Part shown: positions 43,738-59,132 of the stretch, in pieces
Numbering within the stretch: the first letter of the stretch is position 1
How the letters are laid out: the number at the start of each line of letters is the position of its first letter
IMG/VR virus record: IMGVR_UViG_3300045988_131126
From: a virus
DNA: 64,000 nt
Strand: one strand, 5' to 3'
The notes under the pieces: model-generated
What the model was told of the DNA's origin: nothing
What the model saw: the letters and a program-made list of their open reading frames with translations, nothing else
Databases searched by the model: none
Position numbers and translations under genes: made by a program

Positions 43738-43746
43738 AAAATAAAA

Positions 43747-43772
43747 CGGAATACTCCATATGGAGTATTCCG
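43747..43772 (+). terminator. Hairpin after the SNF2 fusion gene; first module of an early cassette
   Basis: cggaatactcca-ta-tggagtattccg. Confidence 0.55.
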
Positions 43773-43793
43773 TAATATCTTTATTTTTTGATC

Positions 43794-43813
43794 GTATACT
43801 ATCATATTGAAAA
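43794..43813 (+). promoter_or_regulatory. Early-type promoter word, divergent copy (gtatactatcatattgaaaa)
   Basis: It occupies the same cassette position as the copies at 50791 and 58507. Confidence 0.4.
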
Positions 43814-43870
43814 AATAAATAATAATATAAATCATACTTATTTAAATAAGTGTGTAGAAAGAGGTATGAT

Positions 43871-44089
43871 ATGAGAAGAGATGAATTCATGAACGCGCAC
43901 GAAGTAAGAATGAGCGAGCTTGAAAAAGCTTGCGAGGATCTTAACGAGATTCTCGGCTCCGATCCTGTAGAAGGATTTGAAGATGATATCCTGGATCCTT
44001 CCCTAGAAAGCGAAAGAGGAATCCAGGATATCCAGACAAAGAATTCTCAAGATTTGGATGACTTATTGAAGGGTCTTGAGAATTTATAA
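43871..44089 (+). CDS. Hypothetical small acidic protein (72 aa) in an early cassette
   Basis: ORF-track frame 43850..44089. ATG 43871 follows the conserved TAGAAAGAGG block. Confidence 0.7.
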   Translation: MRRDEFMNAHEVRMSELEKACEDLNEILGSDPVEGFEDDILDPSLESERGIQDIQTKNSQDLDDLLKGLENL

Positions 44090-44098
44090 AAAATAAAT

Positions 44099-44124
44099 AA
44101 CGGATAAGTAAATGCTTATCCGTT
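44099..44124. terminator. Bidirectional hairpin
   Basis: aacggataag / cttatccgtt, between convergent genes. Confidence 0.55.
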
Positions 44125-44848
44125 ATTCTTTCCCAAAAGCTGATTTATTTTTTCTTGCTCCAGGTATCTGTCTTCCCTTAGATGCTTTTACTGGAGCACT
44201 CATAGCTTTTTCTGATTTTTGTTGATCTCTTTCAAAATCTGATAAATTAAATCCGTTCTCCGGTCTACCTAAATAATTTACCATATTTTGAGCATATCCA
44301 AACATATCTACTGTATCTATTAGATATTTAAATCCTAGAAATAGATCTGATATCATATCTACATATATAGATGGATCTGATATAGTTATTCTTACTCCTT
44401 GATTTTGGATATTATTCCATTCGATCACTACTGGATCGAACCATAAATATTTACCATCTGGTAATGACATTTTTAATGTATTTCTTCTTTTACAAGTTAA
44501 ATTACCATCTTTAACTTCAAAAGTATTATCTATCATCCATTTAGATGCCATACTTACTAATTCTCTTAATATAATAATATCTTGTATACGGATCATTACA
44601 CTTCGATCCCAATTGTCACCTCCTACGTCTATAGACATATAATACGAAAAACATCTTTTAATAGTTACTGCTACCTGAGTATCGTCATATTTCGATTCAT
44701 AACGATACTCACTGTGAAAAAACCTTCTACTATTATCTATACTTGAATTCTTTTTGGATAATAGTACATTAAATCGCAGATTAATATTATTCCCTAAATA
44801 CATCATATCATCTGTGATTTTATCATAATCTACGTATTCAACTTGCAT
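44123..44848 (-). CDS. Hypothetical protein (241 aa)
   Basis: ORF track. GGGAG SD. Confidence 0.7.
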   Translation of the reverse strand: MQVEYVDYDKITDDMMYLGNNINLRFNVLLSKKNSSIDNSRRFFHSEYRYESKYDDTQVAVTIKRCFSYYMSIDVGGDNWDRSVMIRIQDIIILRELVSMASKWMIDNTFEVKDGNLTCKRRNTLKMSLPDGKYLWFDPVVIEWNNIQNQGVRITISDPSIYVDMISDLFLGFKYLIDTVDMFGYAQNMVNYLGRPENGFNLSDFERDQQKSEKAMSAPVKASKGRQIPGARKNKSAFGKE

Positions 44849-44897
44849 ATTAACTGTTTAACTCCCTATTATTTATAAAAATATATTATTAAACAGT

Positions 44898-45641
44898 TTA
44901 TCTGGATATAAATTTCCAATTAAGATCTTTCTTCCAACTGATATCATAAGTTCCATTAGATACAGCTATAATTACATCATCTGTCATTCTTCCATAAGAA
45001 TCTAATGATGACAGCATGAAAGAATCCGGATTATTATATATTTTTAACCCAAAATATAAATCTGGGTTTCTAGAAACTTTTCTGGCTTTTTCTACTAAAG
45101 GTATATAACCAGCCAATACGTCAGTAAATGTAATAATCTCCTCTCCCCATTTATCTTCATAAAACTTTATCGGTATTTTATAATAAGGCTCAAGCCTTAT
45201 ATCTGATCCATGCTTTGGACCATTCTGCCTGAATCTAAATACAGAACTTCCAAATATATTATCCCCATCTGGAGATTCTGATAATCTAACTATTGGATAT
45301 TCTGTATCAAGCTCTAATCTTTCTGACGGATATTCTGAAGTATCTCCAGTATACGTGACATATTCCGTAACTTCCTTATCTTTGCACTTATCATTAATAT
45401 CACGTACAATGCTCGGTAATGATTCTTCTACTATAGCATCTGCTACCTTTGTTGCCGTTTTAACAGCACTATTTAATATTGTATCTGCTATACTTGGTTC
45501 TTCTTTCCTCTCCTCCTTAAGTTCTTCATTATCAGAAAAGCACTCTGATAATCTTTGTAATTTTGTTTTGTTATTTACGGAATTACCCTCATAAAAAGTT
45601 TCATAAATTTTATCCGTAAGTGCATCAATAAAAATTCCCAT
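44898..45641 (-). CDS. Hypothetical protein (247 aa)
   Basis: ORF track. AAGGAGAG SD. Early promoter word at 45662-45681. Confidence 0.75.
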   Translation of the reverse strand: MGIFIDALTDKIYETFYEGNSVNNKTKLQRLSECFSDNEELKEERKEEPSIADTILNSAVKTATKVADAIVEESLPSIVRDINDKCKDKEVTEYVTYTGDTSEYPSERLELDTEYPIVRLSESPDGDNIFGSSVFRFRQNGPKHGSDIRLEPYYKIPIKFYEDKWGEEIITFTDVLAGYIPLVEKARKVSRNPDLYFGLKIYNNPDSFMLSSLDSYGRMTDDVIIAVSNGTYDISWKKDLNWKFISR

Positions 45642-45661
45642 TGTTTTCTCTCCTTTTCATT

Positions 45662-45681
45662 TTATTCATCTATATAATATA
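45662..45681 (-). promoter_or_regulatory. Early-type promoter word (tatattatatagatgaataa on the minus strand)
   Basis: 21 nt upstream of ATG 45641. Confidence 0.5.
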
Positions 45682-45698
45682 TAAAGAAAAGAAATTTT

Positions 45699-45724
45699 GG
45701 AAGTATACTTTTCAGTATACTTCC
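45699..45724 (-). terminator. Hairpin overlapping the helicase stop codon
   Basis: ggaagtatac / gtatacttcc. Confidence 0.5.
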
Positions 45725-47256
45725 GATTCATAATCATGATATAATATTTTTCCTTTTTCTTTTTTAGACTCTAATCTAGCATGTCTATTTATTAATTCCA
45801 AATCACCTATCTCTACTTCTGTACATCTAGTAGCATATTTATCGAATATAGGTTTCTTATAATTATAATATTTCTTTATCTGATGAAAACTTTTATCTAC
45901 TATTTCTATATACATAGTATTATTTGCTCTGGTTCTACCTAATGTCTGTCTAGCCAAAACCTCTGATTTAAATGGTTCTGCTAATACTACAGTCATCTTT
46001 AATCCATCTATATCTACTGCAGCTCCTGCTGATTTAGTTGTAGATAATATTAATCTTTTATTTAAAGCTTGTTGTTTTTCTTCTTCTGATACCATAGAAG
46101 TATATACACCGACGTTATTTCTAAATTCCTGATGGTTTTCTATGATCCAGTTGTATACTTCTGATATGGCATTATTTGTACCTATATATACCAGGCATTT
46201 TTCATATAATCCAACATTTTCTTCTATTATTTCGAATAATATATCAAGCATCATATAGAAATTATCATTAGTTACTATTAGATTAGTGTACTTATTTCTG
46301 TCTAATCCATATTGGTTTTTACAGCTCGATATCTGTTGCGGAGTAGGTTTACTACTATACAATATACTTAAATATTCAGTATGAGGATCAGTTTCAGGAT
46401 CAAATAAATCTATTGCTAATACATTTTTAAATGATAATTGATAAATATTGTTTTCAAATTCATTTGATCTTAATGCTGTTGCAGTAATATAATAATTCTT
46501 ATAGGTATTTGTATAGTAATCTATTTTCATCATATTATCAAAATTTTGATGAGCCTCGTCGTAGAATTTCAATCCTATTCTTAAATATTGAAATAATTCA
46601 GTTATTTTATCCCATCCATGAGTATCACCATAACTCTTTAATGTAGAATGAGTTACTGTAAAATATTTGATTTTCCTTATTTCTTCTGGTGTTTTGGTTA
46701 ATAATCTATATATACAACCAGAGCCTTTTATATTATATATCTCCTTATCTGTTACATTCGTGTACTGCTTAATTCTATCTATCCATTGAGTTAACCAAGA
46801 ACTTTGCGAGGTTATAATGATAGATTTAATACCTAAATAAGCACTAGTAGCTATAGCTATATAAGTTTTACCTTTACCTGTATATAGATTTAATTGTAAT
46901 TGAGATTTAGTAGCTGTATCTCTATATTCTTCTTTACCTATAGTAAATCTTAATGCTTCTTTTTGTACATCGTTTCTTGGTAAAGTCTTTATCATAATAT
47001 CATTATACATATCGAACTCATCACTCATATTACGTTCTACAATAGCTTTTTGCTCCATTATTTTTTCGACAAAATAAACGTCTATACCTCTCGGGAGATA
47101 TAGAGTACGATTTTCCGTGTCATAAAATAATCCCTGATAGTAATATTGGTGATTCGTTGGGTTAAACATTAAGAAATATTTCTCTAAATCTGGATGTGAT
47201 CCAAATTCATAATCAGTTATTTTTATACATGTATTTTTAACTATTATTTTACTCAT
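45712..47256 (-). CDS. SF2 DEAH-box DNA helicase (UvsW/RecG-like class)
   Basis: LYTGKGKTYIAIA (motif I), KFYDEAHQNF (motif II), YYITATALR (motif III), LSTTKSAGAAVDIDGL (motif V), RQTLGRTRA (motif VI). Confidence 0.8.
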   Translation of the reverse strand: MSKIIVKNTCIKITDYEFGSHPDLEKYFLMFNPTNHQYYYQGLFYDTENRTLYLPRGIDVYFVEKIMEQKAIVERNMSDEFDMYNDIMIKTLPRNDVQKEALRFTIGKEEYRDTATKSQLQLNLYTGKGKTYIAIATSAYLGIKSIIITSQSSWLTQWIDRIKQYTNVTDKEIYNIKGSGCIYRLLTKTPEEIRKIKYFTVTHSTLKSYGDTHGWDKITELFQYLRIGLKFYDEAHQNFDNMMKIDYYTNTYKNYYITATALRSNEFENNIYQLSFKNVLAIDLFDPETDPHTEYLSILYSSKPTPQQISSCKNQYGLDRNKYTNLIVTNDNFYMMLDILFEIIEENVGLYEKCLVYIGTNNAISEVYNWIIENHQEFRNNVGVYTSMVSEEEKQQALNKRLILSTTKSAGAAVDIDGLKMTVVLAEPFKSEVLARQTLGRTRANNTMYIEIVDKSFHQIKKYYNYKKPIFDKYATRCTEVEIGDLELINRHARLESKKEKGKILYHDYESEVY

Positions 47257-47370
47257 TGCACCTAATTCCCTTCTTTGAGAGCTTTATTTACTTATTTGTA
47301 CGTACAAAAATGATTCCGTAATATCTTTATTTTTGTCAAAATTATAGATCTTAATAAATCCTAATACAAA

Positions 47371-47390
47371 TATATATTATATAGGTGAAA
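47371..47390 (+). promoter_or_regulatory. Early-type promoter word (tatatattatataggtgaaa)
   Basis: Followed by AATAAAAAGAAAGGAG, a leader shared with the copy at 48154. Confidence 0.5.
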
Positions 47391-47414
47391 ATAAAAAGAA
47401 AGGAGCCGATAATT

Positions 47415-47720
47415 ATGGCTAAATTTATAACAGACGATACCAAAGATTCATTGGCAAAAGATTTTTATGATTTTTGTAACGGGATAATTTCTCAAGTTGA
47501 AAGTTTACATGGTATTTTTAATGACGATGTGTATAGTAATATTATACACGAATTTATCAACGTAGTTAAAAAAGAATATGAATTATACGATAAGTTTGTA
47601 GGACCTATTAATCACGTAAGAAGATTCTATCCAAATGCTACTTATAAAAATACCATTAATAAACTAAATAAACTAGATCCCGAAGTAATACGTAAAGAAA
47701 TAGAACGATACGGAGATTAA
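47415..47720 (+). CDS. Hypothetical small protein (101 aa)
   Basis: ORF-track frame 47385..47720. I moved the start to ATG 47415 (AAAGGAG SD). The GTG at 47385 lies inside the promoter word. Confidence 0.7.
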   Translation: MAKFITDDTKDSLAKDFYDFCNGIISQVESLHGIFNDDVYSNIIHEFINVVKKEYELYDKFVGPINHVRRFYPNATYKNTINKLNKLDPEVIRKEIERYGD

Positions 47721-47760
47721 TACAAAATATATAATTACAAGAAAGGGGTATTATGTTTAT

Positions 47761-48093
47761 ATGGGACGTTATCGTAATATTAATGTGTGTGAAAATTTTG
47801 GCTGGATATCTGATTCTATTGTACTGAAAGCCGAAGAAGAATTGCTAGACTATATAAATAAAACGATAGAATATTTGGACAATCTCTGGAAAAGCGGAAA
47901 AATATCAGCTGAAGACTTTAAATCAATTATACTCAACTATGAAGTTCAATATGATTTATATACAAAAACTTTTCTTGATACTTTTGGTTATTCCATAGAA
48001 GTAGAAGAGGATAAATGTAGCTTTGTCAAATATTTTAATAAAGCTATAGATAACGATTATTATACCTATTCATATGGATATATAAAAATATAA
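47761..48093 (+). CDS. Hypothetical small protein (110 aa)
   Basis: ORF track. AAAGGGG SD. Confidence 0.7.
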   Translation: MGRYRNINVCENFGWISDSIVLKAEEELLDYINKTIEYLDNLWKSGKISAEDFKSIILNYEVQYDLYTKTFLDTFGYSIEVEEDKCSFVKYFNKAIDNDYYTYSYGYIKI

Positions 48094-48153
48094 TTAATGA
48101 CGAAAACAAGCTACCTGAATAGCTTATTTTCAGTTTATTATTTTTATGAGTTA

Positions 48154-48174
48154 TATATATCATATATGTGAAAA
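48154..48174 (+). promoter_or_regulatory. Early-type promoter word (tatatatcatatatgtgaaaa)
   Basis: Upstream of the MazF-like gene. Same leader as the copy at 47371. Confidence 0.5.
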
Positions 48175-48196
48175 TAAAAGAAAGGAGTATTATATT

Positions 48197-48853
48197 ATGG
48201 ATAATACAAAATATTTAAAAAGTGATATTGTTTCTAAACCAGTTATTAGAAGATGGGATCTTCATTATTGCTCATTAGATCAGGATATACTTCCTGATTC
48301 TGGTTCTGTTTTAATTGGGAAAGCTAATAGGCCATGCTTAATAGTTAGCTCTAATGAATATAATCAGATGTCAGATAAAGTATTAGTAATGCCTTATTGC
48401 AGTAATAACAGAGATGATTTAACAGATGAAGAGTACGTAAAGCAGGCTGCAGAAAGAGGAGAAACTTTAATACCAATGGTATTAAATAGAAATGCCAGAT
48501 CATTTCTTATCATTGATCAACCTAGATTAATTGCAAGAAAGATGCTCAGAGGATATGTAGGAACACTTGATGTAGAAGCAAACGAAAAATTAGCAATTAA
48601 AGTAACGGAAGCTGTATTTAATTATATGATTGATCCTGAAGTGTTTACGAAAACAGAAATATTCAAATCAATGGTTAACGAATACTTTGCTAATAATTTT
48701 ACTGTTGATGCTACAGACGAAAGTATTTCAACTCCTCCAAAAGATGTCGATGAAAAACCAAAGTCGGTCCCTAATACTATTCAGGAAGATTACGGAATAA
48801 TATGCATGAGAAGATCTAAAGAGGAAAATGCTAAATATGCATTAGCAATTTAG
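48197..48853 (+). CDS. MazF/PemK-like (CcdB/MazF fold) protein with a C-terminal extension of about 90 aa
   Basis: RRWDLHYCSLDQ..GSVLIGKANRPCLIVSSNEYNQMSDKVLVMPYCSN...FLIIDQPRLIARKMLRGYVGTLDVEANEKLAIKV parallels E. coli MazF GDLIWVDFDP..GSEQAGHRPAVVLSPFMYNNKTGMCLCVPCTT...LADQVKSIAWRARGATKKGTVAPEELQLIKAKI. I moved the start to ATG 48197 (AAAGGAG SD). Confidence 0.65.
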   Translation: MDNTKYLKSDIVSKPVIRRWDLHYCSLDQDILPDSGSVLIGKANRPCLIVSSNEYNQMSDKVLVMPYCSNNRDDLTDEEYVKQAAERGETLIPMVLNRNARSFLIIDQPRLIARKMLRGYVGTLDVEANEKLAIKVTEAVFNYMIDPEVFTKTEIFKSMVNEYFANNFTVDATDESISTPPKDVDEKPKSVPNTIQEDYGIICMRRSKEENAKYALAI

Positions 48854-48883
48854 ATTAATTAAATACGAAAGAAGGAAGTATAA

Positions 48884-49447
48884 ATGTTAAAGGGAGAGGG
48901 AAAGTACGGATTGAAGGAATTTGTAAAGAAAGAAGGTGTAAATTATCATAATAGAAATTTAAAAACTGGAGCATGTTTTGAGCAATATGATAGACAGGGT
49001 AACCTTATATATTATAATTGCTCATTCTTGCTTGCATCTAATGCTGTATTAAATTATAAACAGGAATATGCTTATAATCATATAGCACATATAGTATCAT
49101 ATAGAGATTCTGATGGGGTTAAATGGGAAAAGCAGTATACTCCAGAGGGATTTGATATTGTATACAAAAATAAAATATTTAAAGTAGCTTTTAGATTTAA
49201 ATATAAAACCAATAAAATCATAGCTATAGAAAGCAATGGTCATAAAGATATTATAGATATATCCAAATGTAAATCTATATCAATAATAAACGGAATAGAT
49301 TTTTCTGATAGATTCTTATTAGAAAACAAAAGTTTATTCGATTATTTTATATCAGATTTACCAGCGACCGATTTACAAGAAAAAATAATAGCTTTTAAAG
49401 ATGATGAATTATCCGATAAAGTATTAAATTATTTGAAAGAGGTATGA
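48884..49447 (+). CDS. Hypothetical protein with one YD-repeat-like unit
   Basis: ORF track. FEQYDRQGNLIYY and SYRDSDGVKWEKQY. Confidence 0.6.
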   Translation: MLKGEGKYGLKEFVKKEGVNYHNRNLKTGACFEQYDRQGNLIYYNCSFLLASNAVLNYKQEYAYNHIAHIVSYRDSDGVKWEKQYTPEGFDIVYKNKIFKVAFRFKYKTNKIIAIESNGHKDIIDISKCKSISIINGIDFSDRFLLENKSLFDYFISDLPATDLQEKIIAFKDDELSDKVLNYLKEV

Positions 49448-49450
49448 CTA

Positions 49451-49645
49451 ATGGAACATTCAAAATCTACTAAAAAAGATCTAATGAAACAAATGATCAA
49501 GAAATTAAATAAGCAGGATAAAGAAATAAACCAATTAAAATTGCTACTCTATAATAATATTCAAACTAAGAGATTAATTCAAGATGAAAAACCTTCTCGC
49601 CAAATTAGTTTTCTTAGAGGGGAGGATGAAACATTTTATGATTAA
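49451..49645 (+). CDS. Hypothetical small basic protein (64 aa)
   Basis: ORF track. AAAGAGG SD. Confidence 0.6.
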   Translation: MEHSKSTKKDLMKQMIKKLNKQDKEINQLKLLLYNNIQTKRLIQDEKPSRQISFLRGEDETFYD

Positions 49646-50354
49646 ATCATTCTATGCTGTTTTGGATTTAAAGAATCCAGATTTAGTTATTCAGAAAATA
49701 GATCCAGTAAATTTTAAACTATATAGAAAATGGAAGAATGGAGTAGAAGAATGGATCACATTCTATTATCTTGCAGATGGAAAACGTATTCTTATTAAAG
49801 AATATAAAAACTCTACTGGATACGAATTTAAGATTGATACCGAAAATAAAGAATTCATGTATAATGATAATCTTGGTAATTGGTATAAATATAATATAAT
49901 TACCCATGATTACGAATCTGTAGACTTAACTCATAGATATGATAATAATGGAAATCTTATATATTATAAGTCTCCAGAAGGAGTAGAAGAATCTTATCAG
50001 TACGATGACAATAACCTGATACAGAAATATGAAAAGAGAGTAGATGGAGAAATAGTATTAACCCGTACATATCAAAGATACATAGCGAGAGGTTCATCAG
50101 AAGAATATTTTATGGATGAACCTTTAACTCAAATTCAAGAGAATACTAAAGATTTATACTCTGAAAGAACTTATGATATGAAAGGAAGAGAGATTCTTTA
50201 TGAAGACGAAGATAGAAACGGAGATAGAATAATGGTTGGAACTAAATATGAAGATAAAAGAGCACATGTAATGGTGTGGAAGAATGGAAAGTTTATTTAC
50301 GAATACTATGTCAAAGAAGGAGACGAAAATTATGGAAAAGGATTCAAAAAATAA
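49638..50354 (+). CDS. YD-repeat-like protein
   Basis: ORF-track frame 49584..50354. The start is probably ATG 49638 or 49626, after GGGGAGG. Repeat units: HRYDNNGNLIYYKSPEGVEESYQYDDNNLIQKYE and RTYDMKGREILYED. Confidence 0.6.
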   Translation: MIKSFYAVLDLKNPDLVIQKIDPVNFKLYRKWKNGVEEWITFYYLADGKRILIKEYKNSTGYEFKIDTENKEFMYNDNLGNWYKYNIITHDYESVDLTHRYDNNGNLIYYKSPEGVEESYQYDDNNLIQKYEKRVDGEIVLTRTYQRYIARGSSEEYFMDEPLTQIQENTKDLYSERTYDMKGREILYEDEDRNGDRIMVGTKYEDKRAHVMVWKNGKFIYEYYVKEGDENYGKGFKK

Positions 50355-50718
50355 TATGGTTATAGATGATAAGCCAGGACAGGCATTTTCTATGGTTTCA
50401 CCATACGGAGTTATGCCACACGATGTTTTGTGTAAACCACGTAAAAGAATAGAATATATTTTATCTCCTAAAAACTGTCCTGATGAGGGAATTATACCGT
50501 TACCGTTTTTACTTAAAATAAAAGATGAAGACAATTATTTAATATTTAAAGGTTTACAAACTGTAAAATTATCTAGCGAAGAATCTTATGATAAAATAAC
50601 AAATAAAAACATCATAAGATATATACTAAAAGAGCACATTGCTGCAGTATTTCGAGCAAGCTATAAAAATAATATCGATTTTTTAAAAGCACAAGAATAC
50701 GGAGAATTAACAGATTAA
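50332..50718 (+). CDS. Hypothetical protein (128 aa)
   Basis: ORF-track frame 50284..50718. ATG 50332 has AAGGAG 9 nt upstream. Confidence 0.65.
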   Translation: MEKDSKNNMVIDDKPGQAFSMVSPYGVMPHDVLCKPRKRIEYILSPKNCPDEGIIPLPFLLKIKDEDNYLIFKGLQTVKLSSEESYDKITNKNIIRYILKEHIAAVFRASYKNNIDFLKAQEYGELTD

Positions 50719-50725
50719 AAAACGA

Positions 50726-50756
50726 GAAAGCTATCCAATGGATAGTTTTCTTTTTT
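50726..50756 (+). terminator. Intrinsic terminator; first module of an early cassette
   Basis: gaaagctatcc / ggatagttttc (one G-U pair) followed by tttttt. Confidence 0.8.
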
Positions 50757-50790
50757 CTACGATACGCGTAATATCTTTATTTTTTGATCA

Positions 50791-50809
50791 TATAATATTA
50801 TAGTGATAA
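50791..50809 (+). promoter_or_regulatory. Early-type promoter word (tataatattatagtgataa)
   Basis: Inside the modular cassette 50726-50866. Confidence 0.55.
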
Positions 50810-50866
50810 TAATAAAAAATAATACATAAATCCTATATAATAAATATAGGTAGAAAGAGGAACAAT

Positions 50867-51130
50867 ATGAGAAGACTTGATACCATGAGAAACATTTTAA
50901 AGAAAGCTAAGACCAACGATCTAACAAAAATAAAATCGAAAGCGCTTACGCCGCTTATGTATGATAAAGATAAGCATACATTTTTACAACTCTCTCCATT
51001 GTGGGAGGGACATGGATGGAACTCAAAACTAATAGGTGTGAGAGTACCTCACACCTATTGGATTGGGGAAGTACTTGTAACAAAATATGAGGATTTTAAA
51101 TTAACACTTCCTCGGAGATACTATAGATAA
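50867..51130 (+). CDS. Hypothetical small protein (87 aa) in an early cassette
   Basis: ORF track. The conserved TAGAAAGAGG block lies 6 nt upstream. Confidence 0.7.
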   Translation: MRRLDTMRNILKKAKTNDLTKIKSKALTPLMYDKDKHTFLQLSPLWEGHGWNSKLIGVRVPHTYWIGEVLVTKYEDFKLTLPRRYYR

Positions 51131-51135
51131 ATTAT

Positions 51136-51169
51136 AAAGAGGTGTAAGGATTATACCTTACACCTCTTT
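51136..51169. terminator. Bidirectional hairpin
   Basis: aaagaggtgtaagg / ccttacacctcttt, between convergent genes. Confidence 0.7.
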
Positions 51170-51194
51170 ATACCCAAAACTATTTTATTTTTTA

Positions 51195-53315
51195 TTAAAT
51201 ACTCATTATATTACTATATGGAATATTGTTGTTTCCGTTAGTCTGAATATTTACAGACTTAAGCGGGAAATTACCAATATTATCATTTATAATAGTTGTA
51301 TAATCAATAAACTCTACAACCCATTTAGGTACTGCTACATCTAACGGTATTGCTAATGATGTAAATTCATTACCTTTACTTGTAGCTTTTCCTTTAAAAA
51401 TACTTGTATCCTTTAATACGTTCTTTATCTTTTCGTATGTTTCTGGATAAGTATCTTTTATTTTTTCTACAGTTTCTTCATTTACAACTACTTTTACAAT
51501 ATCCATACTATTTCTAGCTGTTAAGTCAAATCCTTCAAGACCATCATCTTTAATATCATTCCATATAACCGCAGCTTTTATACCTTGTATACCCATAGGA
51601 TCATCATAATGATCCATAGATTTTACATTTACCGGTTTATAGAATTCTTTTTCTCCATTATTAAGAGATCTAAATATCTTTTTATCTAATATCGCTAATC
51701 TCTTTATAATTCTAACTTGATCTATTACATCTGTATCAAGTATCTCTTCATATAATATCTTAGATAAAGCTGACTGTATAGATTTATTTAAGGTTACCTT
51801 TCTAATTTGTAAACCTTTAATATCCATACTTTCTTCTTCTGGTACTTTATGACCTTCCTGAAGTTCCTGTTTAGATGCATAGTTCTTCATACCTTCTGTT
51901 AATAATGCTCTTTTCATAAGAAACTCATTTTTCATATAGATAAGACATTTTCTATCTTCTCCATAAGAATGATTAGCTTTAGTATATTCTACCATATAAT
52001 CATTTACCAAAGCACCTACTATATAAGCCATAATATTAACCAATGAATATCTTAAATTATCAGAACCAGTTTGCTTATTAGGATTTACCAATCTTTTTCT
52101 AATTACAATATCATCATTAATGAAATCATAATCTTCATAATCTTCTTCAATAGGTTTAGTTTCTCCTAATACTGGATTATCTATTTCATTTAAGATTTTG
52201 AATTTGTGACCTTTACATTTCTCAAGACCAAATCTGAACCAAGCTTCAAGACTAATAATAGCACTATCTGTATCAGAGATACCAGCAATATTTTTAATCA
52301 TATTATCGCATCTATCAACTTTATCCATATATTGATATTTAAAATATACAAACTCTTTTAAGATATCTACTAAAGTATCTATCTCTACTTTGATTTCTTT
52401 TGGTGGCTCGTTTGGATCCATAAATGGTTGATCTAATTTTTCCAATAAAATTAATAATGCATTCGTCATTGATGCATTATCCATGAACTCGTAAAGGTTA
52501 TTTTTGTAATACAGTCTATTTATATCTTCTTGATCAAGTCTATTAATAATATCCCATATGATCTGTAAATCCATTTCATCAGGTAACCATTTTATTAATC
52601 CTTGCTTATAATCACCTATAGTAAGTACAATTTTATTGAAACATTCTTCTTTAGAAATATTACGATCTAATATATCGCAGTCTCTATATCTTCTTTCTTT
52701 TCTTTCACTTACTACACTATCAATAAACCATACAACTTCTTCAAGAGAAGCAAATTTAACGTTATTAGATAGAAAGCTTTCGAAAAACATAGTTGCTGTA
52801 CTAATGAGTTCTCTACCTGTTGTAGTAATGGATTCTGCTACAAAGATATTATAAAACATTGCTTGACATTGACCAAGTACACCGTATATTCCATTACAGT
52901 CAATTTTATCAAGTAATTGCAATAGATTATATTTCACAAACATTTCAGATCCTTTTGGATACTTAAACATTTCTGCTTTATGAACACCTCGCATTTCCAT
53001 AAATCCTCTAATCATTTCTATTAAAGGATTAGGAACTGTTCCATGTCTCATAAACATTACTCCAGATGGAGTACATATTGGTTGCTGAGATGCTATATAA
53101 TTTGTAAACTCTGATAATAACATCTCATGTTCTTTCTTATTGTAGTTATTGACTATTTTACATTTAGTATCAACAAATCTTTTCTTTACAGAATAATCAA
53201 TAGCATCTTTTATCTCTTGATTATTTAGGCTTGGATATATTAAAGACATTACTGTATGCATTTGCTGCATATATCTCATAACGCCAGCCGAATTATCTAC
53301 TGCTGAATTAACCAT
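51195..53315 (-). CDS. Family B DNA polymerase, polymerase (palm/fingers/thumb) part only
   Basis: MSLIYPS (motif A-like) at residues 23-29, KIDCNGIYGVLGQ (motif B, KxxxNSxYG), GISDTDSAI (motif C, DTDS). It has its own SD, AAAGGAAG. No exonuclease motifs are present. Confidence 0.75.
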   Translation of the reverse strand: MVNSAVDNSAGVMRYMQQMHTVMSLIYPSLNNQEIKDAIDYSVKKRFVDTKCKIVNNYNKKEHEMLLSEFTNYIASQQPICTPSGVMFMRHGTVPNPLIEMIRGFMEMRGVHKAEMFKYPKGSEMFVKYNLLQLLDKIDCNGIYGVLGQCQAMFYNIFVAESITTTGRELISTATMFFESFLSNNVKFASLEEVVWFIDSVVSERKERRYRDCDILDRNISKEECFNKIVLTIGDYKQGLIKWLPDEMDLQIIWDIINRLDQEDINRLYYKNNLYEFMDNASMTNALLILLEKLDQPFMDPNEPPKEIKVEIDTLVDILKEFVYFKYQYMDKVDRCDNMIKNIAGISDTDSAIISLEAWFRFGLEKCKGHKFKILNEIDNPVLGETKPIEEDYEDYDFINDDIVIRKRLVNPNKQTGSDNLRYSLVNIMAYIVGALVNDYMVEYTKANHSYGEDRKCLIYMKNEFLMKRALLTEGMKNYASKQELQEGHKVPEEESMDIKGLQIRKVTLNKSIQSALSKILYEEILDTDVIDQVRIIKRLAILDKKIFRSLNNGEKEFYKPVNVKSMDHYDDPMGIQGIKAAVIWNDIKDDGLEGFDLTARNSMDIVKVVVNEETVEKIKDTYPETYEKIKNVLKDTSIFKGKATSKGNEFTSLAIPLDVAVPKWVVEFIDYTTIINDNIGNFPLKSVNIQTNGNNNIPYSNIMSI

Positions 53316-53400
53316 TTAAATATCTTCCTTTCTTTTAGAATTATTCTTATGTGTTCGCAAAGATAATATATCATTAAAACTAGTATAAGGTTAAAATAAG

Positions 53401-53412
53401 AACATATGTGTA
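53401..53412 (+). promoter_or_regulatory. Late-type promoter word (aacatatgtgta)
   Basis: 64 nt upstream of ATG 53476. Confidence 0.35.
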
Positions 53413-53475
53413 AAAATGGCTTGTTAAAGTTATGATTCTAAAAATAAAGATTATGAATTTAAGGAGGACAATATC

Positions 53476-53946
53476 ATGTCATTATTTGATACAGGTTCTG
53501 AAAAGATTACTTTAGAAAATACATTTGATGAAGATCAGAAAGATTTAGTTATTGAAGCTCTTATTTATGACGAAGTTTCTCATCTTCCTCAAGAGAAAAT
53601 TGAAGAGTTCTGTAAACCGAATGGAGTTGGAGAAGAACTTGTTATGGAAGGTAAGATCTCTAAGAAAACTATTGTACGTCTTAATAGACAGGACGACCTT
53701 GCTAGACGTAAAAAGATTATGGCTCTTAATCTTGCTAAAGAAGCTAATGATCCATTATATGCTAAATCTGTTATGTTTCGCCAGAAACAGAAAGAATATG
53801 TAGCAAAGATTATGCAGAAATATGGAAATAAAGCTGAGAGACTTGCTAAGCAGGCTCAGCAGGAATTCTTACATCCTGCATCTGATAAGAAAGTTCTTCC
53901 AGCATCCTTTATGAAAGCTGGCGGAGCTGAACGTGTTGGCCAATAA
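53476..53946 (+). CDS. Hypothetical protein, probably abundant late protein (156 aa)
   Basis: ORF track. AAGGAGG SD. AACA-N6-TA at 53401-53412. GC-richer codons. A terminator lies downstream. Confidence 0.75.
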   Translation: MSLFDTGSEKITLENTFDEDQKDLVIEALIYDEVSHLPQEKIEEFCKPNGVGEELVMEGKISKKTIVRLNRQDDLARRKKIMALNLAKEANDPLYAKSVMFRQKQKEYVAKIMQKYGNKAERLAKQAQQEFLHPASDKKVLPASFMKAGGAERVGQ

Positions 53947-54010
53947 TTAATATAAACATATAAGTAATTCTGATAAGTAAAATACCTTCAATAATAATCA
54001 ACGAAAGATA

Positions 54011-54059
54011 TGAGAGTAAGTGGATTAATTTCCACTTACTCTCATTATTTGTTTTATTG
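54011..54059 (+). terminator. Intrinsic terminator after 53476-53946
   Basis: atgagagtaagtgga / tccacttactctcat followed by a T-rich tract. Confidence 0.7.
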
Positions 54060-54149
54060 ATATATTATAAAAATAATTAAGTTATAGGATTTTGAAAAAT
54101 ACATACAGTTCTACAACTTAATAAGTATAAATAGGGAGGATTAGAACTT

Positions 54150-56357
54150 ATGGACGAATTATTTAATGATCTTTTAAATCCGGAGCCATTTATATCAAAG
54201 ATTCAATCTCGATTTAATGAGATACAACCTTTGATAATTGATGATCTGACGCACTATGAAAATTATGGTGAATATGTACCGCTAGTTAATACTGGAGCGA
54301 TCAGTATTAACACTTCTAATTTGAGTAAAGAGAATATTGATTCTCATTTTACTTGGATTTATAATATCATTGCTGATGGCATTGAGCAGAAAAAAGTTCA
54401 TGATATGATAGTATATATTACATTTATGGATAATGTACAAATTAGATTATCTATATTTGATTATATGCTTAATCTTATTATGTGGAAACTACCTTTGCAA
54501 GCCGGAGATTCTTTAACAAGTAATTTCCTATTCTTTGATGATTGCATCACGCAGGATTCTATCAAAGATTATATTGATTTTAAATTCATTGATATTCACA
54601 GAAGAGATTTTAATAACTGTGATATGAATCAAATGATTGATGAGACAATATACAAATTTATGTATATTGATGACTTTGCTTATTATCTTATCAATACTAT
54701 CAATGAAAAAGATACTATTGATTTAATGAAGAAGTCCCAAGTAGCATGGGATACATTGCATTTTTCTACGGTACAATATCCGTTGGAAGACAAGAAAGAT
54801 GCTGCTATGGATATGACAAACAAATTAATTGCAGTAATAAAAGCACCTGATTCTGAGCATTGTTTAAGGGATTCGTTCAGAGCTAGAGAAGGTGTTAACC
54901 CAAAACAGTTCAGGGAAATGATTTGCAATATTGCAACTAAACCCGATGGTAATGGAAGTATCTTTAGTATCGACCTCGATACAAACTATATGCAAGAGGG
55001 TGTAGCAAAACCTGAATATTATACTATTGATAGTAGTGCAGCAAGACAAGCACAGATCTTAAATAAAGAGAATGTAGGACAATCTGGAGCATTTTCTAGA
55101 AAATTAAGATTAAATAATATGCACGCTAAAATTCATCCAAACCCAAAATACGTTTGTAATTCAAAAAGATTCTTGCCAATATTTATTAAAGATATGAAAG
55201 TATTAGTAAGATTCAAAAACAGATATTTCAGATTTAATCCAAAAGGAATGGAGTATAAAGTATCTCCACATCCAGAAAGAGATAATGTAAATCTTATAGG
55301 AAAGACTTTATATTTTAGATCTCCGGAAACATGTGCTTCACATGCTAGAGGAGAAGGGATTTGTTATAGATGCTATGGGGATTTGGCATATACGAATGCA
55401 GATATTAACCCAGGATGTATGGCATCAGAGTTATTGTCTTCTGTATTAACCCAGCGATTATTGTCTGCTAAGCACTTATTAGAGACAAATGTAAAAGCAT
55501 TAAACTGGGTTCCGGAATTCAAAGATATTTTTGCTGTAAACTGGAATATGATTATGATTATGGATGATTTCATTCCAAAGAAATGGAAACTTATTATATC
55601 ATCAGATGATATTTATCAGGAATCAGAATATGATGAGTTTGATTATAACTCATGCATAACTACTTTCAATGTAATGGATCCTGATGGAAATACCATTCTT
55701 ATCAAAACAGAGGATTTAGACAACTTATATATTTCTCCAGAGTTAAGAAAAGTAATGGATAATCAGAAACTTGTAGATGATCAGTATATAATCGATTTCT
55801 CTGATATTATGGGGATTCATTTATTTATGGTCAATATTACAAATAATGGATTATCTGCAACTCTTGAACGATGCAAAGCTACTCTTGATAAACAAGCTAT
55901 TATTAAAGAGTATAAAAATGATATCGGATTATTTACACAAGGATTTATCAATACTATTATTGAGGGTGGACTTGATACAGATGCAGTTCATTGTGAAGTA
56001 CTTATATCAAATCAGTTACGTAGAGTCACAGACGATTTAGGAGATTCTATGTTACAACCTGAGTGGGAATATCCAAATGAACCATACAAGATCGTAACTC
56101 TTGATACAGCGTTAAAAGAGAACCCAAGTATCACTACATCATTGAATTATCAGTATATACAGAAACAGTTATTCAAACCAATTACATTTAAGAAAAATAA
56201 ACCTGGTATGATGGATTTATTCTTTATGGAAAAACCACAAGAATATATGAATGTAGAATTGGATTATAACCCGAAATTCAAAGATGACGTTGATGATGCA
56301 ATTGATGGATTTATTAATCCTATTTATCACGTAGATGAAAATGGTAATAAATTATAA
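54150..56357 (+). CDS. RNA polymerase beta-prime subunit, C-terminal half (phage multisubunit RNAP)
   Basis: SAARQAQILNKENVGQSGAFSRKLRL (compare [27 protein letters not shown]). RSPETCASHARGEGICYRCYGDLAYTNADINPGCMASELLSSVLTQRLLSAKH (compare RSxxTCxxxxGVCxxCYGRDLAxGxxVxxGEAVGxIAAQSIGEPGTQLTMRTFH). Confidence 0.8.
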   Translation: MDELFNDLLNPEPFISKIQSRFNEIQPLIIDDLTHYENYGEYVPLVNTGAISINTSNLSKENIDSHFTWIYNIIADGIEQKKVHDMIVYITFMDNVQIRLSIFDYMLNLIMWKLPLQAGDSLTSNFLFFDDCITQDSIKDYIDFKFIDIHRRDFNNCDMNQMIDETIYKFMYIDDFAYYLINTINEKDTIDLMKKSQVAWDTLHFSTVQYPLEDKKDAAMDMTNKLIAVIKAPDSEHCLRDSFRAREGVNPKQFREMICNIATKPDGNGSIFSIDLDTNYMQEGVAKPEYYTIDSSAARQAQILNKENVGQSGAFSRKLRLNNMHAKIHPNPKYVCNSKRFLPIFIKDMKVLVRFKNRYFRFNPKGMEYKVSPHPERDNVNLIGKTLYFRSPETCASHARGEGICYRCYGDLAYTNADINPGCMASELLSSVLTQRLLSAKHLLETNVKALNWVPEFKDIFAVNWNMIMIMDDFIPKKWKLIISSDDIYQESEYDEFDYNSCITTFNVMDPDGNTILIKTEDLDNLYISPELRKVMDNQKLVDDQYIIDFSDIMGIHLFMVNITNNGLSATLERCKATLDKQAIIKEYKNDIGLFTQGFINTIIEGGLDTDAVHCEVLISNQLRRVTDDLGDSMLQPEWEYPNEPYKIVTLDTALKENPSITTSLNYQYIQKQLFKPITFKKNKPGMMDLFFMEKPQEYMNVELDYNPKFKDDVDDAIDGFINPIYHVDENGNKL

Positions 56358-56366
56358 TTAAATATT

Positions 56367-56395
56367 GTCTCACTAGTATATCATACTAGTGAGAC
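56367..56395 (+). terminator. Hairpin after the beta-prime C-terminal-half gene
   Basis: gtctcactagtat / atactagtgagac. Confidence 0.55.
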
Positions 56396-56422
56396 TTTAA
56401 TCTAGAAAGGAGAATTTAATTT

Positions 56423-57442
56423 ATGAGCAACGTATCTATGTTTTTATTTAATGATGATGAGGAAATGAAACCTAAACCATCAGAAATTAAACGTTTACAG
56501 GAAGGTAGTGTGAAATGTATTGAAAAGAAGAAAGAACCATATGTAGAAGGAATGATCTTCGTATTACAAATGGATAGAGAGATTGATAAAGATAAGCATT
56601 GCATTATATCTCCAGGAGGATATGAGTTTAAATCCAGTAAAAGTGAAAAATCTTTACAGTTTGATTTCTTTGACTATGCAGGATATATAGATTCAAATGA
56701 TAAGACAAAGATATTATTTGAAACTGAAGTATTAGACAGACAGTCTTTTCCAGGAACTATAGATAAATTAAATAAATCATTTTGTGAAGATATAAACGAA
56801 ATTACAGAATTTTATGTTTATACTGGAGAAGATGAAGATCCAGAACTAAACTTATCTAAAATTATAGACATAAGTTTATTATTTACAGATGGTACTAAAA
56901 TTGATATCAAAGAAGAAGTTATAAATAAATACAACGAAAAGATTACTAAAACTAAAGAAAAGAAGAAGATGCCGATGATTAATAGATTATCGAGCATGTC
57001 TTTAACATTAAAATTTAAAAATCTTCCAGATGATATTATGTATAAATCTTTAAGTGAAAGTAAATCTATAACTATATTTGACATAATACAATTATCATCA
57101 TCAAGATTAGGAAAATCTGCAAAGTTTGCATTCTGTGGAGAGGTGGAAAATCATTTCTTCGAGCATGACAAATCCATATTAATAGAAAAGCAGAATTATT
57201 TGGATAATAGTGCATTCTATGATGACATAGATATACTTACAGAAGATTTTATCAAATCGGTTGATGTAATAAATTATATATCCTTCGATGATGTATTATT
57301 AATGCCGAATCTTCCGATACAGTCTATTCTTACAATTAAATATGAATTCGAAAATGGCGATGAATACTACGCAAATGATTATGTAATAGACGAGTTCAAT
57401 AGAAGAATTAAAGAAAATATGAACTTAATCCATATTAATTAA
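56423..57442 (+). CDS. Hypothetical protein (339 aa)
   Basis: ORF track. AAAGGAG SD. Confidence 0.75.
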   Translation: MSNVSMFLFNDDEEMKPKPSEIKRLQEGSVKCIEKKKEPYVEGMIFVLQMDREIDKDKHCIISPGGYEFKSSKSEKSLQFDFFDYAGYIDSNDKTKILFETEVLDRQSFPGTIDKLNKSFCEDINEITEFYVYTGEDEDPELNLSKIIDISLLFTDGTKIDIKEEVINKYNEKITKTKEKKKMPMINRLSSMSLTLKFKNLPDDIMYKSLSESKSITIFDIIQLSSSRLGKSAKFAFCGEVENHFFEHDKSILIEKQNYLDNSAFYDDIDILTEDFIKSVDVINYISFDDVLLMPNLPIQSILTIKYEFENGDEYYANDYVIDEFNRRIKENMNLIHIN

Positions 57443-57461
57443 TAAAAGGAGAATGATTACA

Positions 57462-58106
57462 ATGAAAAGCAATGAAAATAAAGAAATTTGTAGCAAATGT
57501 AGAGGAATTTGTTGTAGAAACATGCCGGGACAATACGTCCCGGATGATCTCTTTGATCATGAAATGACGAAAGAAGAGTTGAAGAAATTTATATTAGAAG
57601 TTGGGAATATATCTATAGACTGCTGGGAGCCAGATGAAGAATCAGGTTACGAATCATATTATTATTTAAGACCAATGAGAAGAAAATTAACTCTTGAAGA
57701 AGCAAAGCAAAATGTAATAACGATAGACGAGAAGGATCCTGATAATTTATCATTAGAAGATAAAGAGAAAATAGCAGAAGTGTGGGCAAATATACTCAGT
57801 TATTCGATCAAGAATTTCAGAAATCAGGATCTTACGGTTGATTATGGATATAACGAAGTTGCACTAGTATGCTGTCATTTAACCGAAAATGGGTGTGATT
57901 TAAAGTTTGATAAAAGGCCTACCAATTGCAAAGAATTAATCCCAGCAAGAGATACGGAATGCTATATAGAAGGATTATCCGAAAATGATTCAGCGAAATT
58001 ATATTATGCTAAGAAATGGGAGAAATATAATGATATGCTGAATGATATAGCAAATGAAATTGAATTCGGAAAAGACTATAAAGAATATATTGGAGAGGAA
58101 GAATAA
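57462..58106 (+). CDS. YkgJ-type CxxCxxxCC zinc/iron-chelating domain protein
   Basis: CSKCRGICCRNMPG near the N-terminus and VCCHLTENGCDLKFDKRPTNCKEL later, as in the UPF0153/YkgJ family. I moved the start from 57453 to ATG 57462 for SD spacing. Confidence 0.55.
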   Translation: MKSNENKEICSKCRGICCRNMPGQYVPDDLFDHEMTKEELKKFILEVGNISIDCWEPDEESGYESYYYLRPMRRKLTLEEAKQNVITIDEKDPDNLSLEDKEKIAEVWANILSYSIKNFRNQDLTVDYGYNEVALVCCHLTENGCDLKFDKRPTNCKELIPARDTECYIEGLSENDSAKLYYAKKWEKYNDMLNDIANEIEFGKDYKEYIGEEE

Positions 58107-58107
58107 T

Positions 58108-58455
58108 ATGATACAGGTATTTCCTAAAGATGAAAATGTAAATATGAATCTAGAAGTTCCTACATTTGTAAATACTAGGAAAAATGATTACATATTATCT
58201 AAGAAATATACTAAAGAAAAGGAGGGTCTTACAATGAAAAGACTCAATAAGAAAATCGAAACTATAAACAATATTATTCTGGCAGTTGCCATTGCCGGAA
58301 TAATATTCTGGCTCCTTGGAGATGGCCTTTTTGGTCATCTCGGAGGACTTATAGTTACTATTATAGTAACTATAAGCATTTCCTTATTGACAGTAAGGAA
58401 ACTTCAATTGAAGAATAAGAAACTTCAATTGAAGTTAATGAAAGCAAGACGATAA
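58108..58455 (+). CDS. Small membrane protein with two TM helices and a basic tail (holin-like topology; function unproven)
   Basis: ORF-track frame 58054..58455. ATG 58108 follows GGAGAGG. The internal ATG 58234 has a very strong AAGGAGGG SD. TM segments IILAVAIAGIIFWLL and LGGLIVTIIVTISISLL. Confidence 0.6.
   Translation: MIQVFPKDENVNMNLEVPTFVNTRKNDYILSKKYTKEKEGLTMKRLNKKIETINNIILAVAIAGIIFWLLGDGLFGHLGGLIVTIIVTISISLLTVRKLQLKNKKLQLKLMKARR
58398..58434. repeat. Two copies of GAAACTTCAATTGAAG, each containing the 12-bp palindrome CTTCAATTGAAG, 21 bp centre to centre
   Basis: Copies at 58398-58413 and 58419-58434, inside the 3' end of the membrane-protein gene. Confidence 0.9.
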
Positions 58456-59126: not shown

Positions 59127-59132
59127 GTCTAA

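Follow-up and report, generated by a model that had tools for sequence, protein, structure and literature searches.

Why does nearly the same series of non-coding elements recur in front of different small genes of one virus? This question is raised by positions 50726-50866 of a 64,000-nucleotide stretch of viral DNA (IMG/VR record IMGVR_UViG_3300045988_131126; hereafter the window, these 64 kb being the genome coverage of the analysis), where an earlier note had described a reused early cassette of terminator, promoter word and leader hairpin in front of a small open reading frame (ORF). We followed up this description in the window and in related contigs. The element is probably a portable composite cassette for early accessory genes, in which terminator, phage-polymerase promoter and leader modules double as recombination homology.

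An ordered module recurs at four sites

A non-coding module of ~120 bp is common to four sites of the window, as determined by alignment and an nhmmer profile, and all of the elements originally listed are present in it. Three full cassettes (1, 2 and 3; 43746-43870, 50724-50866 and 58440-58574) precede ORFs of 72, 87 and 75 amino acids (aa), just as a size range of 72-87 aa had been claimed, and none of the three ORFs has a match in Pfam or PHROG. A fourth copy without an ORF lies at 58786-58923, and partial copies were found at 47318-47414 and 19560-19615. The latter, first described as 19596-19615, does contain hairpin, T-tract and CTACGATAC, but represents the terminator module only. The terminator, promoter and leader parts are separable, which bears out the description as a reused, modular unit. 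The parts of the four copies, with the Shine-Dalgarno sequence abbreviated as SD, are the following:

43746-43773 (+), cassette 1 terminator hairpin, 12-bp stem ACGGAATACTCC/GGAGTATTCCGT, after the SNF2-helicase ORF (terminator scan)
43772-43789 (+), cassette 1 T-tract module GTAATATCTTTATTTTTT
43795-43809 (+), cassette 1 degenerate early promoter TATACTAT-CATATT-G, predicted start G 43809 (AR9 consensus)
43833-43864 (+), cassette 1 leader hairpin 43833-43854 with one U-G pair, abutting SD TAGAAAGAGG 43855-43864
43871-44089 (+), 72-aa ORFan of cassette 1
50724-50765 (+), cassette 2 terminator module: hairpin 50724-50752, T-run, CTACGATAC 50757-50765
50768-50805 (+), cassette 2 promoter module: GTAATATCTTTATTTTTT 50768-50785, TATAATAT 50791-50798, N6, predicted start G 50805
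50832-50860 (+), cassette 2 leader hairpin CCTATAT/ATATAGG 50832-50850, abutting SD TAGAAAGAGG 50851-50860 (covariance model, 53.8 bits)
50867-51130 (+), 87-aa ORFan of cassette 2
58440-58481 (+), cassette 3 terminator module: hairpin 58440-58466, T-run, CTACGATAC 58473-58481
58484-58521 (+), cassette 3 promoter module: GTAAAATCGTTTTTTTTT, TATATTAT 58507-58514, predicted start G 58521
58538-58568 (+), cassette 3 leader hairpin CCTACTT/AAGTAGG abutting SD TAGAAAGAGG (covariance model, 50.9 bits)
58575-58802 (+), 75-aa ORFan of cassette 3
58786-58863 (+), cassette 4 terminator module: hairpin 58786-58824, repeat TCTAATTATACTAATTTACGTATACTCTTTATTTTTT 58818-58854, CTACGATAC 58855-58863
58882-58919 (+), cassette 4 promoter module: GTAATATCTTTATTTTTT, TATATTAT 58905-58912, predicted start G 58919
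58919-59080 (+), cassette 4 predicted non-coding structured transcript with four hairpins (fold)

Exact copies of the T-tract module GTAATATCTTTATTTTTT start at 43772, 50768 and 58882, and the copy at 47318 deviates by a single mismatch; with up to three mismatches allowed the module was found eight times (1.5 expected), a number reached by 0 of 100 shuffles. At the same tolerance, the promoter word TATATTATTATAGTGATAA yielded six matches against 0.7 expected. Exact copies of CTACGATAC start at 19607, 50757, 58473 and 58855, three of them at the positions noted before and the last one a single nucleotide (nt) upstream of the previously given 58856. TAGAAAGAGG is exact at 43855, 50851 and 58559 only. 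The hairpins 43833-43854, 50832-50850 and 58538-58558 each end directly before it, and the ATG follows 6 nt behind, again as described. The promoter word reported at 43795 is present in the degenerate form given above.

Small ORFs are gained, lost and exchanged at the cassettes

Megablast of 47000-53500 against cultured phages gave no DNA-level match, and the phage therefore has no annotated near relative among them. Related contigs were found in IMG/VR and in metagenomes, several of them labelled human gut. With the DNA polymerase as query for related loci, only two close relatives were returned. Our comparison is based on relative A (IMG/VR 3300029713_000006) and relative B (3300030447_000093), each of which is 94-98% identical to the window over ~23 kb.

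The segment 58539-58843, comprising leader, ORF 58575-58802 and terminator, is absent in relative A, which has a single chimeric cassette instead, its left part corresponding to cassette 3 and its right part to cassette 4. Behind the cassette 4 promoter, relative B carries a leader hairpin CCTACG/CGTAGG, an SD and a 114-aa ORF, whereas the window and relative A share the structured non-coding stretch. At ORF 50867-51130, the sequence of relative A is exchanged from inside the hairpin onward, resulting in another hairpin and a 142-aa ORF, and relative B is a mosaic. Promoter, leader and ORF 43871-44089 are all replaced in relative B between the two flanking terminators. ORF 47415-47720 is absent in relative A, where another ORF with its terminator is inserted at the GTAATATC remnant; a 72-bp segment of terminator plus promoter (48094-48165) is missing there as well. 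ORF 49451-49645 is replaced in both relatives. Most of the junctions fall inside cassette modules or at their edges. These alignments show, at the level of sequence, that the cassettes mark sites of small-ORF gain, loss and exchange between near-identical phages. This is the main comparative result, and the earlier note had missed it.

The same picture emerged from the wider set of contigs. A scan with GTAATATCTTTATTTTTT returned 68 stretches with ~7 true relatives (L015, L023, L031, L040, L050 and L055), and a scan of viral contigs with the promoter word TATAWTATNATAGTGAWWA gave, among the matches listed, mostly chance hits plus the useful loci L087, L093 and L193. Altogether, the contigs yielded 33 distinct instances of the cassette, among which there are 21 hairpin strings and 29 different N-termini of ORFs. 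One hairpin occurs with four different ORFs, and one ORF family (MRRxDxMRNIL) occurs with two hairpins and behind two different upstream terminator hairpins.

The leader hairpin covaries and is locked to the Shine-Dalgarno sequence

For the leader hairpin we used the search pattern AAATCCTA-N(9-17)-TAGGTAGAAAGAGG, which leaves the inner stem and the loop free, and obtained 12 stretches from IMG/VR, 23 from metagenomes and 3 from genomes. One clear chance hit was identified, L221 from a Peribacteria metagenome-assembled genome (MAG), where the match is located inside a G+C-rich coding region. In 17 distinct copies, 94.9% of the cells were paired, compared to 75.7% after shuffling and 27-40% when the partners were slid. 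The covariation score was 0.467 (0.115 for shuffled copies), and 0 of 500 shuffles reached this value. Two inner pairs are fully compensatory in these copies: pair 5 is CG in seven cases, GC in seven, UA in two and AU in one, and pair 6 is UA in six, AU in five and GC in five; unpaired bases were not found at either position. Among 30 distinct copies from related contigs, aligned by a covariance model and hence leaning towards structure, six of the seven pairs had changed on both sides, and the slid controls paired at 21-42%. The loops are not conserved. Based on the covariation and on the shuffled and slid controls, we conclude that the pairing of the stem is under selection, which confirms the hairpin as a selected structure.

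The position of the stem is equally constrained. In all copies the 3' arm ends directly before (U/C/G)AGAAAG, with 0-1 nt between hairpin and SD. Within the window, hairpins of at least 7 bp abutting an SD precede 4 of 65 genes (17484, 43871, 50867 and 58575), all of them first genes behind early promoters; where an early promoter serves a core gene, the hairpin/TAGAAAGAGG unit is missing. With a covariance model of hairpin and SD, we recovered the three copies, which were part of its seed alignment, at 43-54 bits and a diverged non-seed copy at 16269-16297 (22.8 bits), the rest of the window being noise. The model matched 58 times in 0.41 Mb of related contigs; AT-rich viral DNA from unrelated sources (1.05 Mb, of which 50 kb were from AR9) gave 0 matches. 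At the gathering score, Rfam had 0 matches in the whole window, with sub-threshold noise only at 58400-59200, and a tRNA scan found nothing.

Outside this group, contig L222 (CAVHMC010000029.1) carries two hairpin/SD units (4062 and 4360) in 4060-4400, between consecutive small ORFs and with no promoter word between them. Their stems are G+C-rich (CCTAGCCC/GGGCTAGG and CCTACCCCTT/AAGGGGTAGG), the unit lies directly behind the upstream stop codon, and the contig has otherwise no detectable similarity to the window. It was binned with an Oscillospiraceae MAG; such binning is no proof of a host. The contig hints that the unit is more widely spread, and it may also point to the host clade.

What we infer is the acting strand of the hairpin and its function. 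U-G pairs in the stems at 43833 and in L200 favour sense RNA, and the T-G pair of the 43833 hairpin had already been taken to imply a role as RNA; the pair is there, but it is weak evidence for a strand, and a hairpin type with C/A points the other way. The structure could be no element of the sense mRNA at all, acting instead as a weak antisense terminator, a DNA cruciform or a recombination site. In line with this, the minus-strand copy of the 58538-58558 hairpin was flagged as terminator-like, the plus-strand leader is A-rich, the C/A of the one hairpin type at pair 7 becomes G-U on the minus strand, and a recombination target was the speculation of the authors who described comparable stem-loops in T4-type phages (PMC2839356). 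The leader stems, however, are short and AT-rich with 6-7 bp, compared to 11-17 bp in the real terminators of this DNA, and strong terminators are already present behind the cassette ORFs (44095-44128, 51133-51172 and 58786-58824). Moreover, the hairpin-SD spacing is locked at 0-1 nt in every copy, the L222 unit directly behind a same-strand stop codon fits a role in mRNA or translation, and for the 43833 stem the opposite strand would turn the U-G pair of the core into an A/C mismatch. We therefore regard an antisense or DNA role as unlikely and keep to a hairpin of the sense leader.

The SD UAGAAAGAGG is complementary, with one G missing, to the 3'-terminal ...CCUCCUUUCUA of Firmicutes 16S rRNA. 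The fixed adjacency of hairpin and SD suggests two possible roles: stacking of the hairpin on the helix of SD and anti-SD, or, once the A-rich leader has been cleaved, a block to 5'-to-3' decay formed jointly by the hairpin and a bound ribosome. With lower probability, the hairpin/SD unit is an element of translation or stability that is new in kind. In its furthest form this idea is possible but doubtful: AAAUCCUA-stem-UAGG/UAGAAAGAGG would be a new, horizontally shared cis-RNA module of phages of gut Firmicutes, its helix would stack on the SD/16S CUUUCUA helix or bind a phage regulator, and such a plug-and-play translation or stability element would, together with promoter and terminator, provide jumbo phages with an integron-like capture of early accessory, possibly anti-defence, genes.

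The promoter word resembles early promoters of AR9

The window has a G+C content of ~30% and encodes a divergent family-B DNA polymerase (51195-53315, minus strand) with the Bacillus phages AR9 and PBS1 as best cultured matches at 28% identity. Two ORFs (54150-56357 and, on the minus strand, 29055-30854) are similar to β/β' subunits of multisubunit RNA polymerases and match PHROG RNA polymerase beta families; the best matches of both are AR9/PBS1-like and Staphylococcus jumbo phages, with proteins ~28-31% identical. A major head protein, a virion protein and the large terminase are also encoded. The source is an uncultured jumbo phage of a gut-type community; its DNA polymerase and RNA polymerase subunits group it with the AR9/phiKZ-related jumbo phages.

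The mapped early promoters of AR9 consist of ATATATTAT-N6-G+1, with AAATATATATTAT-N6-G(+1) as the fuller consensus, and are active without new protein synthesis, hence served by the virion RNA polymerase; late promoters of this phage read AACA-N6-TA/G, and in phiKZ-related early promoters the start is likewise located 6 nt past the element (PMC5312081). The cassette word TATATTAT-TATAGT-G leads to predicted starts at 50805, 58521 and 58919, with the degenerate copy at 43809, and the predicted transcripts open with GATAA/GAATA, as do the AR9 early transcripts that we inspected. The exact motif TATAWTAT-N6-G occurs 21 times in the window, and 17 of these copies fall within the 8.6% that is intergenic. 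They are located upstream of the DNA polymerase, two helicase-region genes, the SNF2 operon and small ORFs or ORFans, but not of virion genes. Genes for the major head, virion protein and terminase have AACA-N6-TA 33-70 nt upstream, in sequence a match to the consensus of the late AR9 promoters, which are those of the non-virion RNA polymerase. This motif, often in the form AACAAnTnAGTA, was seen 33-75 nt upstream at 985, 3614, 13571(-), 15534(-), 16900(-), 21284(-), 22264, 25786, 35407, 53476 and 59170, that is, before virion, major head, terminase and other genes.

The fit to the AR9 consensus, the intergenic bias, the gene classes, the late motif and a chance-level result for sigma-70 sites make the early, phage-polymerase reading well supported by analogy, and the word fits the sequence-level criteria of the AR9/phiKZ class of virion-RNA-polymerase early promoters. 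The former description as an early promoter thus agrees with the word itself and with its location before replication genes and ORFans; start sites and early timing we infer from the AR9 counterparts only.

In T4-type phages, similar cassettes use sigma-70-like promoters (PMC2839356), and the copy at 50783-50811 can indeed be read as TTGATC, a 17-nt spacer and TG-n-TAATAA. In such a host sigma-70/SigA promoter, TTGATC would be the -35 box, TGATAATAA an extended -10 box and TATAWTAT the mere spacer, and transcription would be carried out by the host RNA polymerase. The putative boxes vary among the copies, however (TTGAGT, TTAATT, AAAAAT, TAAGAA), and the conserved positions are precisely the supposed spacer and the G six nt later. 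Furthermore, sigma-70-like sites in 43000-60000 are at chance level (122 found, 122.6 expected) and none of the listed sites is on a cassette promoter. The phage also has RNA polymerase subunits of its own, and the motif equals the consensus of the AR9 virion polymerase. The host promoter was rejected on the basis of the chance-level scan and appears to us highly improbable. Likewise, an N4-type hairpin promoter, in which a giant single-subunit virion RNA polymerase recognises a DNA hairpin upstream of the start, was rejected because the hairpin lies ~19-30 nt downstream of the predicted start, and the RNA polymerase genes found in the 64 kb are of the multisubunit type. A promoter read by a phage polymerase remains our preferred interpretation.

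Upstream of the word, the T-tract TAATATCTTTATTTTTT (allele AAAATCGTTTTTTTTT) has its end ~19-20 nt from the predicted start, a distance also kept in front of the late promoters at 59115-59126 and within the 880-984 spacer. The tract could serve as the tail of the terminator or as a promoter element upstream of the word, and the two roles could be combined.

The terminator is a separate, strongly enriched module

Terminator-like hairpins are enriched sevenfold in 43000-60000 (29 found, 4.2 expected). Those at 50724-50752 and 58440-58466 are canonical intrinsic terminators, and at 43746-43773 the T-run starts 6 nt past the stem. Identical terminator hairpins were found behind different upstream genes. 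In comparison to relative B (L070), the stems at 43746-43773 and 44095-44128 show compensatory double changes (C..G to T..A, and AACGG..CCGTT to AGTGG..CCACT), and therefore the terminator hairpins are also under structural selection.

The 15-mer TTTTTTCTACGATAC is always located behind a terminator hairpin with its T-tract and is unvarying at four sites of the window. Downstream of it we found an early cassette, an AR9-type late promoter (L055, L199 and L216) or a convergent gene (19607). Because the downstream sequence varies in this way, CTACGATAC is part of the terminator and not of the promoter. The terminators of phiKZ likewise have a conserved motif, in which a TTAT region comes after the hairpin (Putzeys et al. 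2024, PMC10914365); the two phages have in common a phage-specific conserved sequence directly past the hairpin, here TATCTTTATTTTTT plus CTACGATAC, though the sequence itself differs.

The invariance of the 15-mer at its four sites also suits a quite different scenario, in which each unit, from promoter and leader to ORF and terminator, would be a site-specific mobile element in its own right that inserts at TTTTTTCTACGATAC with target duplication, by means of a recombinase or homing enzyme dedicated to it. Identical copies of the 15-mer flank the 382-bp insert 58482-58863, and relative A has a single copy. The same 15-mer, however, also ends terminators without a neighbouring cassette (19601-19615) and those before the late promoters of L055, L199 and L216, while other junctions are located elsewhere, namely inside the hairpin, at the ATG, at the SD or past the upstream terminator. 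In relative A the crossover maps to AAAAT, downstream of the 15-mer, and the 28 ORFs scanned contained no integrase or homing-nuclease match. Dedicated insertion at TTTTTTCTACGATAC is thus very unlikely, and recombination between repeated modules is the explanation that we favour.

A side observation concerns the surroundings of these terminators. The 37-nt repeat TCTAATTATACYAATTTACRTATACTCTTTATTTTTT is located at 58818-58854 behind the terminator hairpin of ORF 58575-58802, with a second copy at 59090-59126 before the late promoter of the terminase. In relative B, this repeat again follows a terminator hairpin.

A model for the cassette and its relation to known systems

In the model that we consider probable, the terminator module (a strong hairpin, a T-tract and often CTACGATAC) would insulate the gene from upstream transcription. 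The promoter module, (G)TAATATCTTTATTTTTT followed after 4-5 nt by TATAWTAT-N6-G, would be recognised by a virion-packaged phage RNA polymerase starting at the G, by analogy with AR9, phiKZ and phiR1-37. The leader module consists of an A-rich stretch and AAAUCCUA-stem-loop-UAGG abutting the extended SD UAGAAAGAGG, with the AUG 6 nt on; its hairpin would act in the mRNA and most likely give each plugged-in ORF an equal ribosome-binding context, either as a barrier against decay from the 5' end or because it stacks on the duplex between the SD and the 16S 3' end. Since the modules of ~120 bp are repeated, they would supply homology for recombination, by which small ORFans may be deleted, inserted or exchanged there.

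The closest known counterparts are the promoter-early stem-loop (PeSL) cassettes of T4-type phages (Arbiol, Comeau & Krisch 2010, PMC2839356; Comeau et al. 2014, PMC4122927). Both are composite intergenic motifs of ~100 bp containing an AT-rich tract, an early promoter, a stem-loop, an SD and a start codon, and both sit mainly before ORFans in plastic regions, as do the three full cassettes here with their ORFs lacking Pfam or PHROG matches. In both, indels or replacements of the flanked ORFs between near-identical phages leave chimeric motifs; the segment 58539-58843 in comparison to relative A parallels the case of ORF192 in RB49 and phi1. In contrast to the sigma-70-like promoter of the PeSLs, the promoter described here fits the AR9-type virion RNA polymerase class. 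Also unlike PeSLs, the terminator is a separate upstream hairpin, and the conserved stem-loop is no terminator but belongs to the 5' untranslated region (UTR), downstream of the predicted start, where it abuts the SD and covaries. The lineage is unrelated to T4, with AR9/phiKZ-like polymerases. A further trait of PeSLs is the formation of mini-circles by recombination between flanking motifs. The cassette is thus a PeSL analogue on a phage-polymerase promoter that fails two defining features of PeSLs, the sigma-70-like promoter and the T4-type phage. Apart from a single entry in a reference list, a full-text literature search found no paper in which jumbo phages are connected with PeSL-type cassettes.

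With the early promoters of AR9 and phiKZ (Lavysh et al. 2017, PMC5312081) the cassettes share the TATATTAT core with a G six nt on and transcripts opening with GATA/GAAT. As in AR9, the early motif stands before replication and accessory genes and the late AACA-N6-TA before virion genes, and the RNA polymerase is split into β/β'-like parts. The AR9 consensus extends upstream as AAATATA, in contrast to the T-tract plus GTAATATC found here, and its promoters were mapped, whereas ours were recognised by their sequence.

A third group comprises 5'-UTR elements of Gram-positive bacteria and their phages that reportedly protect mRNA from 5'-to-3' decay, namely the aprE leader stem-loop with its ribosome-binding site, the STAB-SD of cryIIIA and the polypurine stabiliser of SP82. 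The likeness is one of anatomy, namely a stem-loop and/or a polypurine SD complementary to the 16S 3' end. The stabiliser stem-loops are at the extreme 5' end or not fixed to the SD; ours is ~19-30 nt from the predicted start and 0-1 nt from the SD. Papers on these stabilisers are references 106, 109 and 179 of PMC3997798.

Several points weigh against this model. For the start sites, the timing and the identity of the polymerase, the analogy is to a phage whose DNA polymerase is only ~28% identical. None of the eight AR9 early leaders examined has an SD-abutting hairpin or an upstream T-tract, so that these parts are without experimental precedent. The outer four pairs of the hairpin and its flanks are nearly invariant and were fixed by the search pattern, so that only the inner pairs are informative. 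With respect to the strand, the hairpin type of L040, L055 and L073 has C/A at the seventh pair, favouring the other strand, and the A-rich leader equals a T-rich tail on that strand. The comparison with each relative spans only ~23 kb, and some junctions (the left edge of the cassette 1 swap; site e) are at terminators or in the SD region beside the start codon. Finally, one large difference, the only such one, is unrelated to cassettes: at 42321-43369, inside the 1528-aa SNF2-helicase ORF, the window has 1048 nt where both relatives have an unrelated ~403 nt. This stretch could be a variable domain or an inserted element.

If correct, the model extends the idea behind the PeSLs, repeated regulatory cassettes as recombination linkers that shuffle ORFans, beyond T4-type phages and promoters of the host polymerase. 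It comes with a sequence-level prediction of the early/late promoter code in an uncultured lineage of gut jumbo phages and defines a small RNA motif in which an extended SD and a hairpin are locked together; this motif shows clear covariation and is absent from Rfam. In addition, ~29 different small early ORFs are flagged as candidates for host-takeover or anti-defence functions.

Related units, neighbouring genes and a predicted RNA

Elsewhere in the window, parts of the cassette occur in the following units:

47318-47414 (+), degenerate cassette: GTAATATCTTTATTTTTG, AAATCCTA hairpin remnant, promoter TATATTAT-ATAGGT-G (predicted start 47387), SD AAAGAAAGGAG
19560-19615 (+), lone terminator module (hairpin, TATCTTTTATTTTTT, CTACGATAC) between convergent genes
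16167-16297 (+), related early unit: TATAATAT-TATAGT-G (predicted start 16181), longer leader, hairpin CCCT/AGGG abutting CAGAAAGAGG at 16269-16297 (22.8 bits)
17377-17483 (+), promoter TATATTAT-TACAAT-G (predicted start 17391), 5'-proximal hairpin, and hairpin GCTATGG/CCATAGC abutting GAGAAAGGAG

The homologue of the 16167-16297 unit in L031 has a different stem, CGC/GCG. The last unit precedes the gene at 17484, for which an analogous layout had been pointed out; its hairpin indeed abuts GAGAAAGGAG behind an early promoter.

As for the neighbouring genes, the MazF-like gene named in the earlier note is borne out by a PemK/MazF domain in 48197-48853 (Pfam E = 6e-8; protein of 218-235 aa), while its YD-like genes have no Pfam or PHROG match. 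No obvious antitoxin partner was called for the toxin-like gene, and the short segment of early promoter and terminator that precedes it is absent in relative A.

The ORF-less cassette 4 is predicted to yield a structured non-coding RNA. The transcript of ~160 nt (58919-59080) folds into four hairpins at -57.4 kcal/mol (z = -8.1), one of them starting at the predicted +1 and another with a stem of 15-17 bp that includes three U-G pairs and can form in the plus-strand RNA only. It is kept in relative A, with changes located outside the stems or in a loop, and has no match in Rfam. The only small ORF in this cassette (58992-59132) was rejected, since a 1-nt indel and other changes break it in relative A.

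Two further observations concern early promoters. Clusters of TTCAGAAT/CTCTGAAT boxes, inverted pairs included, flank three early promoters without the hairpin/TAGAAAGAGG unit (17330-17420, 28290-28332 and 37770-37815) and may be the operator of a regulator; the 8-mer TTCAGAAT is not enriched window-wide, with 9 copies found and 8 expected. Several predicted early transcripts have a hairpin at the +1 or within 4 nt of it (17391-17420 on the plus strand, 28278-28240 on the minus strand and 58919-58946 on the plus strand; e.g., GAATAACGTGTAGATA...TATCTACACGTTATTC), an arrangement that looks like protection of the 5' end.

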